Below, one piece after another: positions 1-350 of a stretch of DNA of 350 bases. Under the pieces are notes generated by a model. That model was not told the origin of the DNA. It ran no database searches and saw only the letters and a program-made list of their open reading frames with translations. The first letter of the stretch is position 1; every line of letters begins with the position of its first letter. The translations under genes and the position numbers were made by a program. This DNA is from Escherichia coli (GTDB taxonomy: Bacteria; Pseudomonadota; Gammaproteobacteria; Enterobacterales; Enterobacteriaceae). The stretch lies in NCBI RefSeq assembly GCF_003334255.1, contig NZ_QOWU01000258.1. The stretch is one strand, 5' to 3'.

Positions 1-24
1 GCAAACTGCTCCGGAGGCAACCAT
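1..24 (-). CDS. Probable 5' end of a downstream gene (partial, continues beyond window position 1); start codon overlaps the stop of the upstream ORF (TAATG)
   Basis: Minus strand reads CAG AGG CTG TAA TGG TTG CCT CCG GAG CAG TTT GC. The ATG at 24..22 shares its A with the TAA stop. The frame M-V-A-S-G-A-V-C is open to the window edge. AGAGG lies 5 nt upstream of the ATG. Only 8 codons are visible, so this is an inference; an alternative start in a different frame at 58..56 is also possible. Confidence 0.3.
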
Positions 25-287
25 TACAGCCTCTGTAACGGATTATCAGCCCTGGCATCTTCCGACGGCACCTCCTGCCGCCCCCACGCCCTGCTGTATA
101 CCCCGGTACCGCAGCGTGGGCAGCACTTTTCCCCCTCATAATCTTCGTCACACATCACACAAAACCACTTTCTCACCTTCACCGTATAATCCGGAACCGT
201 CATGCCCTGCAGATGCAAACGACGGGCCTCTTTCTCTGCCGGGTCAAGCCAGGTACATCGCAGCAGGATTTTTTCAGCGACAGTCAT
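24..287 (-). CDS. Hypothetical small cysteine-rich protein, putative zinc-ribbon/zinc-binding; 87 aa from first in-window ATG, possibly N-terminally longer with start beyond position 350
   Basis: Supplied six-frame ORF, re-derived by hand: ATG at 287..285, TAA stop at 26..24, no internal stops. Six Cys in 87 aa, five of them clustered as C43-x2-C46-x8-C55-C56-x2-C59 (CVMCDEDYEGEKCCPRC), followed by a GTG motif. No + strand ORF competes. The same frame is open for 21 more codons upstream (288..350), and no Shine-Dalgarno precedes the ATG (minus-strand upstream sequence TTTGAACATGACCAG), so the start is uncertain. Confidence 0.72.
   Translation of the reverse strand: MTVAEKILLRCTWLDPAEKEARRLHLQGMTVPDYTVKVRKWFCVMCDEDYEGEKCCPRCGTGVYSRAWGRQEVPSEDARADNPLQRL
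30..34 (-). promoter_or_regulatory. Candidate Shine-Dalgarno (AGAGG) for the downstream overlapping start at 24..22
   Basis: Minus-strand AGAGG at 34..30 is followed by a 5-nt spacer (CTGTA) and then ATG at 24..22. The spacing is canonical, but the motif is embedded in the last codons (Q-R-L) of the upstream ORF, so it could be coincidental. Confidence 0.25.
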
Positions 288-350
288 CTGGTCATGTTCA
301 AACCACGGTGGTTGTCCGTCATTGCCCCGCTGAAGTGTTAACGGGCATCC

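Follow-up and report, generated by a model that had tools for sequence, protein, structure and literature searches.

Results

The window holds the 3' part of an annotated gene

We analysed a 350-nt stretch of Escherichia coli DNA (the window), whose minus strand carries a reading frame that enters at position 350 and ends at a TAA stop. Many E. coli chromosomes contain the window at 100% identity, among them those of the B2 strain Nissle 1917 and of ATCC 11775. A match to it is present in 3,427 of 5,426 complete genomes and about 1,834 records match it at >=99%, while a search of a phage collection with the window returned no match. Nissle 1917 served as the reference locus (L001), in which position p corresponds to window position 6351-p. 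RefSeq annotates a 435-nt CDS there at 5893-6327, encoding the 144-aa "zinc-ribbon domain-containing protein" WP_001221615.1, and ATCC 11775 has this CDS annotated as well. Residues 37-144 of the protein, which is found in E. coli and Shigella genomic islands, are encoded in the window without any difference; only the first 36 codons are absent from it. The flank beyond position 350 was taken from genomes identical to the window (Nissle 1917), so for the window's own copy it is inferred. The features discussed below are as follows.

24..350, minus strand: in-window CDS, codons 37-144 and the TAA stop (26..24) of WP_001221615.1; first 36 codons outside the window
192..350, minus strand: in-window part of DUF7828, residues 37-89 (Pfam match and alignment)
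288..350, minus strand: the 21 codons singled out in the preliminary description, residues 37-57 (GCPLTLQRGNDGQPPWFEHDQ), core of DUF7828
305..294, minus strand: W52-F53-E54-H55 (WFEH motif); F53 and H55 invariant in 35/35 homologs
288..290, minus strand: codon 57, CAG (Gln); TAG in a minority allele
285..287, minus strand: ATG read here as internal Met58; no Shine-Dalgarno sequence (SD), residue not conserved
257..255, minus strand: Cys68, presumed to complete a four-ligand metal site (C33/C36/H55/C68), of which C33 and C36 are just outside the window
75..182, minus strand: Zn_ribbon_11 (PF11682), residues 93-128 (W98, C100, C103, C113, C116)

Within the window, the earliest start codon of this frame is the ATG at 287..285, which opens an ORF of 87 aa (287..24). 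The preliminary description had pointed out that the 63 nt upstream of it (350..288) continue in phase as GCPLTLQRGNDGQPPWFEHDQ, through 21 codons that contain neither a stop nor an in-frame ATG, GTG or TTG, and recomputation gave the same result. The other two minus-strand frames had been described as closed over this stretch, and both of the stops named, TAA at 340..338 and TGA at 321..319, were found, together with two more TGA codons at 300..298 and 294..292. The estimate that 21 stop-free codons would arise by chance about one time in three also agrees with our calculation (0.38 for the window's composition, 0.36 for uniform bases); by themselves, these codons have no significance. As had been stated, no SD is present in the 15 nt 5' of ATG 287 (TTTGAACATGACCAG). 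The 20 nt before this ATG are predicted to pair with the 16S anti-SD at -2.2 kcal/mol, a value that 44%-71% of the 20-nt windows of the locus reach. A scan of the window for repeats and hairpins gave nothing meaningful, merely 10-nt chance pairs. On the plus strand, ORFs of 43 aa (202..333) and 42 aa (213..341) overlap the gene in antisense; they are unannotated in RefSeq and have no support as genes.

The start codon lies beyond the window edge

From the lack of an SD and the open frame, the preliminary description had derived two options: a longer protein that begins past position 350, or initiation at ATG 287 from a weak ribosome-binding site. With the flank included, the frame meets no stop immediately past position 350. 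It runs on for 36 codons beyond the window edge to an ATG at L001 5893 (window-equivalent 458..456, 108 nt past the edge and 57 codons upstream of ATG 287), and further back to a TAA at L001 5782-5784, the nearest in-frame stop, 73 codons past the edge, with one more in-frame ATG at 5806. In total, the open frame spans 180 codons, a length with a chance probability of about 3e-4. Four start codons were compared by the length of the product and by predicted SD pairing.

ATG 5806: 173 aa; -2.2 kcal/mol
ATG 5893: 144 aa; -10.3 kcal/mol, with AGGAGG 4 nt upstream; top 1.5% of the 20-nt windows of the locus
ATG 5914: 137 aa; +0.1 kcal/mol
ATG 6064 (window 287): 87 aa; -2.2 kcal/mol

Relatives of the protein point to the same codon as the SD. 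Only 123 relatives came out of an exhaustive HMMER search across 1.84 billion representatives, and in the full-length ones, at 31-50% identity, residue 1 aligns with residue 1 of the 144-aa form. We aligned 35 sequences with 20-84% identity to the query. The homologs start exactly at the Met1 column in 19 of 34 cases, and at this column or at most 2 residues downstream in 26 of 34. Most homologs, at 24-51% identity, have their first residue at the Met1 column or close to it. None of the full-length homologs starts at MTVAEK, the N-terminus that would follow from initiation at ATG 287, and the Met58 column holds Met in only 3 of the 35 sequences, most of the rest having Q, P, R, D or H there.

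Independent loci were examined on a Klebsiella IncFIB/HI1B plasmid (L003, 51% identity) and on four more distant contigs (L014-L017). In all of these, and in six homologous loci altogether, translation could start only at the ATG that corresponds to Met1, there being no other start codon; an in-frame stop lies 3-9 codons before it, and each locus has an SD-like site. Comparison of two E. coli alleles (Nei-Gojobori) gave a pN/pS of 0.03 for codons 58-144 and of 0.34 for codons 1-57, the latter from only 7 substitutions (3 synonymous and 4 non-synonymous), which are too few to inform alone.

Because the evidence from the flanking frame, the SD, the protein and the independent loci comes together at one codon, we consider the start settled at window-equivalent 458..456, and we put the probability that ATG 287 is the internal Met58 of a 144-codon gene beginning there at about 0.9. 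The first of the two options in the preliminary description, a longer protein, is the one borne out, with a strong SD at the start; a start at 287 is rejected for the main product. Translation would begin at the ATG at 458..456, with the AGGAGG as its probable SD. The 63 nt that precede ATG 287 are plain coding sequence from mid-gene, and the open frame is a truncation by the window edge of a gene that RefSeq already annotates and that is, in this sense, already known.

Met58 falls within a conserved domain

The protein gives near full-length matches to two Pfam families and has their conserved Cys, His and Trp residues. DUF7828 (PF25165) matches residues 4-89 (model 2-86 of 87, E 9.3e-31), and Zn_ribbon_11 (PF11682, formerly DUF3279) matches residues 93-128 (model 1-36 of 37, E 1.7e-18). 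The predicted product would have an N-terminal DUF7828 domain followed by a C-terminal four-cysteine zinc ribbon. DUF7828 is carried by all 35 aligned family members. Because it spans residues 4-89, Met58 lies in the middle of the first domain, and the 87-aa ORF would keep only about the last 32 residues of DUF7828.

Conservation does not begin at Met58. C36, F53, H55, W98, C100 and C103 are invariant in the alignment, and C33, C68, C113 and C116 are each present in 34 of the 35 sequences. Residues 37-57, encoded by the 21 codons upstream of ATG 287, form the best-conserved stretch, with a mean top-residue frequency of 0.53 versus 0.44 for residues 58-128. An AlphaFold2 model built on the alignment has a mean pLDDT of 87, with 10-residue block means of 88-97 over residues 1-80 and >90 over residues 1-70; the residues around Met58 are thus predicted to belong to one folded unit that spans this position. 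Metal binding is presumed from the conserved Cys/His pattern and the confident model.

In the contigs read, an 87-aa database entry stems from a nonsense allele

The exact 87-aa sequence beginning at MTVAEK is deposited as a protein on >445 contigs. We read eight of these contigs (L005-L012, position 2998), and all eight carry a C-to-T change at gene position 169 that converts CAG (Gln57) to TAG directly before ATG 287. Because of this TAG at codon 57, gene callers split the allele into proteins of 56 and 87 aa; in the PGAP annotation it is a pseudogene, marked as having an internal stop. Since the eight TAG contigs also share a second SNP, A222G, the data suggest a single, recent origin of the TAG allele. 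In searches with exact 61-mers, the TAG form occurs in 55 records versus 1,785 for the CAG form. Codon 57 is CAG in the window, which is therefore the intact allele. The database proteins that start at MTVAEK, in the eight contigs read, come from an allele that the window does not have.

A third length, 173 aa, is found in UniProt entry B7MMF4 (E. coli S88), in which the start is set too far upstream, at ATG 5806 within the preceding gene. Names such as "DNA-directed RNA polymerase beta subunit/140 kD subunit" or "competence protein" are attached to some family members; these propagated names are unreliable and look like annotation errors.

Alternative initiation sites

We considered whether two products might be made, the 144-aa protein and, by minor initiation at Met58, a free C-terminal zinc-ribbon fragment. 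Two variants can be imagined: re-initiation in the TAG allele, or low-level initiation in the intact allele. A stop codon adjacent to an ATG generally permits re-initiation by terminating ribosomes, and in the amber allele the two are adjacent (gacTAGATG). However, Met58 is not conserved and lacks an SD, the amber allele is rare, and its fragments would split the presumed metal site. We regard a second product as very unlikely.

An independent 87-aa zinc-ribbon protein that truly starts at ATG 287, on a weak ribosome-binding site, would account for the many deposited copies of exactly this sequence and would use the earliest start codon within the window. The eight contigs read argue otherwise, given that all have the TAG codon that is absent from the window, and so do the missing SD and the poorly conserved Met58 column. 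Moreover, because ATG 287 is Met58 inside DUF7828, the 87-aa product would be left with half of this domain and without three of its four presumed ligands (C33, C36 and H55), whereas the 57 codons upstream are conserved as protein. We give this reading only the slightest chance of being correct.

Extension in the other direction, to the 173-aa form, appears equally far-fetched. ATG 5806 is the first in-frame start after the TAA at 5782-5784, and a database entry of this length exists, but the codon has no SD, and the extra 29 codons would be read, in a different frame, through sequence in which the upstream gene encodes its zinc ribbon. In the homologous loci, the in-frame stop shortly before the Met1 equivalent makes such an extension impossible, and the DUF7828 match begins at residue 4 of the 144-aa form. 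A start at ATG 5914 (Met8, MANDSKGHF), giving 137 aa, has in its favour that the codon is in frame and just 7 codons after Met1, and that the corresponding position has been chosen as the start of one homolog (P0130). Against it stand the absence of an SD, the retention of residues 1-7 (MR[IM]LKCY) in relatives of 40-51% identity and the alignment of the Pfam model from residue 4, and it is most improbable that translation begins there. Finally, a programmed frameshift fusing the two neighbouring paralogs was dropped, as there is no obvious slippery site, each gene has its own SD and start, and the homologs have separate genes.

The gene overlaps an upstream paralog

The 144-codon gene follows in tandem a gene at L001 5504-5905 that encodes WP_000270962.1, a 133-aa "putative zinc ribbon protein". 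The two proteins are paralogs: both have DUF7828 and Zn_ribbon_11 with the WFEH and CxxC motifs, and they align from residue 7 onward with 31% identity over 125 residues (E 2e-15). The upstream protein differs in its diverged sequence and in being the first of the pair, with its TGA overlapping the ATG at 5893 by 13 nt (ATGCGAATTCTGA). The overlap with a preceding DUF7828 gene recurs at related loci, with 13 nt in L003 and L014 and 10 nt in L015. A search for a sigma-70-like promoter in 2.3 kb around both genes, the intergenic part included, found none, and an Rfam search of the 2.3-kb region returned no family. The 13-nt overlap, the SD placed within the first gene and the lack of a promoter hit between the two give the layout expected of a translationally coupled overlapping pair, and we infer that both genes share a transcript and are probably coupled in translation.

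The 861-nt two-gene region is found in 1,463 records at >=99% and at up to 7 places per genome. Seven proteins among the relatives (P0033, P0038, P0040, P0041, P0047, P0052 and P0054) appear to be mosaics in which the N-terminal half comes from one paralog type and the C-terminal half from a different one, the two being joined close to the WFEH motif. Given the number of places that the region can occupy in one genome, these mosaics suggest recombination among multiple island copies.

Genomic neighbourhood

Similar neighbours recur at related loci. A Gp2/YagK-YfjJ-like Rep protein (PF11726, with a weak REP_ORF2-G2P match) is encoded in four of the five (L003, L014, L015 and L016), as is AlpA (L003, L014-L016). 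The tandem DUF7828 pair follows in three (L003, L014 and L015), and a YeeP-like GTPase is near in three. L017, a contig of just 1 kb, has neither Rep nor AlpA. The gene is part of a conserved module, consisting of Rep, often AlpA, and then two tandem DUF7828 proteins, in CP4/SRL-type islands and some Klebsiella plasmids.

A different arrangement is seen in L016 (3458-4381 and 5537-6459), where an unannotated gene encoding about 176 aa, for which Pfam gave no match, stands before each DUF7828 protein. This module, the 176-aa gene plus the DUF7828 gene with no paralog before it, occurs twice and flanks the YagK/YfjJ-like gene.

Discussion

For the biology of this gene, the placement of its start matters little, as the correct gene model is already in RefSeq. 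The locus nonetheless illustrates that when an ORF is open to the window edge, the first ATG inside the window should not be taken as the start. It also shows how one locus can give rise to three database lengths, namely the correct 144 aa, an over-extended 173 aa and the 87 aa that come from a nonsense allele.

In the 144-aa protein, the region around the CxxC...H pattern (residues 18-57) shows sub-threshold similarity to CoiA_N (PF25164) and DUF7830 (PF25169). At E <=0.1, CoiA_N is matched by eight of the 35 family members and DUF7830 by seven, and for this protein the CoiA_N match has an E of 0.39; at E <=0.001, none of the 35 members matches either family (best 1.3e-3 and 3.2e-3). CoiA is defined by a PD-(D/E)XK nuclease domain (PMC1189080). 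Our protein, in contrast, is 144 residues long and has no such domain, which places it outside CoiA, and the similarity to CoiA_N and DUF7830 is a lead rather than membership.

Other searches were negative within their scope. The anti-phage defence models of PADLOC-DB gave no family at E <=0.01 for this protein, its paralog or the Gp2-like neighbour, and neither NCBIfam nor PHROG gave a family for the two zinc-ribbon proteins. No relatives were found in the PDB by sequence (E >=0.15 with the single protein, E >=0.068 with a profile) or by fold, and all the AFDB50 models that Foldseek retrieved belong to this family itself. Literature searches under Zn_ribbon_11, PF11682, DUF3279 and DUF7828 yielded no papers on the family, and papers that mention inovirus Gp2-like proteins are silent on the zinc-ribbon genes.

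With low confidence, we suggest that the protein may be a zinc-dependent nucleic-acid-binding or protein-binding accessory to the Rep and AlpA functions of the element. Going further, it is conceivable, if on the improbable side, that the tandem overlapping DUF7828 and Zn_ribbon_11 pair is an uncharacterised core module of CP4/SRL-type islands and plasmids, for instance a factor that, as a heterodimer, binds DNA in a zinc-dependent manner and steers the island's replication, excision or helper-dependent transfer. A still smaller possibility is that the rare allele with adjacent TAG and ATG may continue to make two polypeptides by re-initiation. For a broad class of genomic islands, a core role of Gp2-like proteins has been put forward (bioRxiv 10.1101/2024.08.29.610337). 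As a consistent neighbour of Rep-like and AlpA genes in widespread enterobacterial islands, this small family with two zinc domains would be a reasonable target for work on island biology.

The gene set around the Nissle 1917 locus resembles that of CP4-type islands and of the SRL island of Shigella flexneri (orf34-orf41), a likeness that rests on the published SRL table. This table lists a phytase-like esterase, IS66 genes, a hypothetical ORF, a YfjJ/inovirus Gp2-like protein, an Hha-like protein and an AlpA/Vis regulator, and it describes the ORF next to the Gp2-like gene as "hypothetical, no similarity" (PMC6980539). The genes listed also occur as neighbours at the Nissle locus, with the exception that its record names the regulator only as a helix-turn-helix protein. 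An IS66 element (tnpA, tnpB and tnpC; L001 6682-8841) lies about 350 nt 3' of the stop of the 144-codon gene; after it come a gene for a phytase-like esterase, IS remnants and fecI. The Gp2-like gene has upstream of it a 66-aa ORF (L001 4278-4475, equivalent to L004 1889-2089 on the minus strand), which is named "zinc-ribbon domain-containing protein" in one genome and "hypothetical protein" in others.
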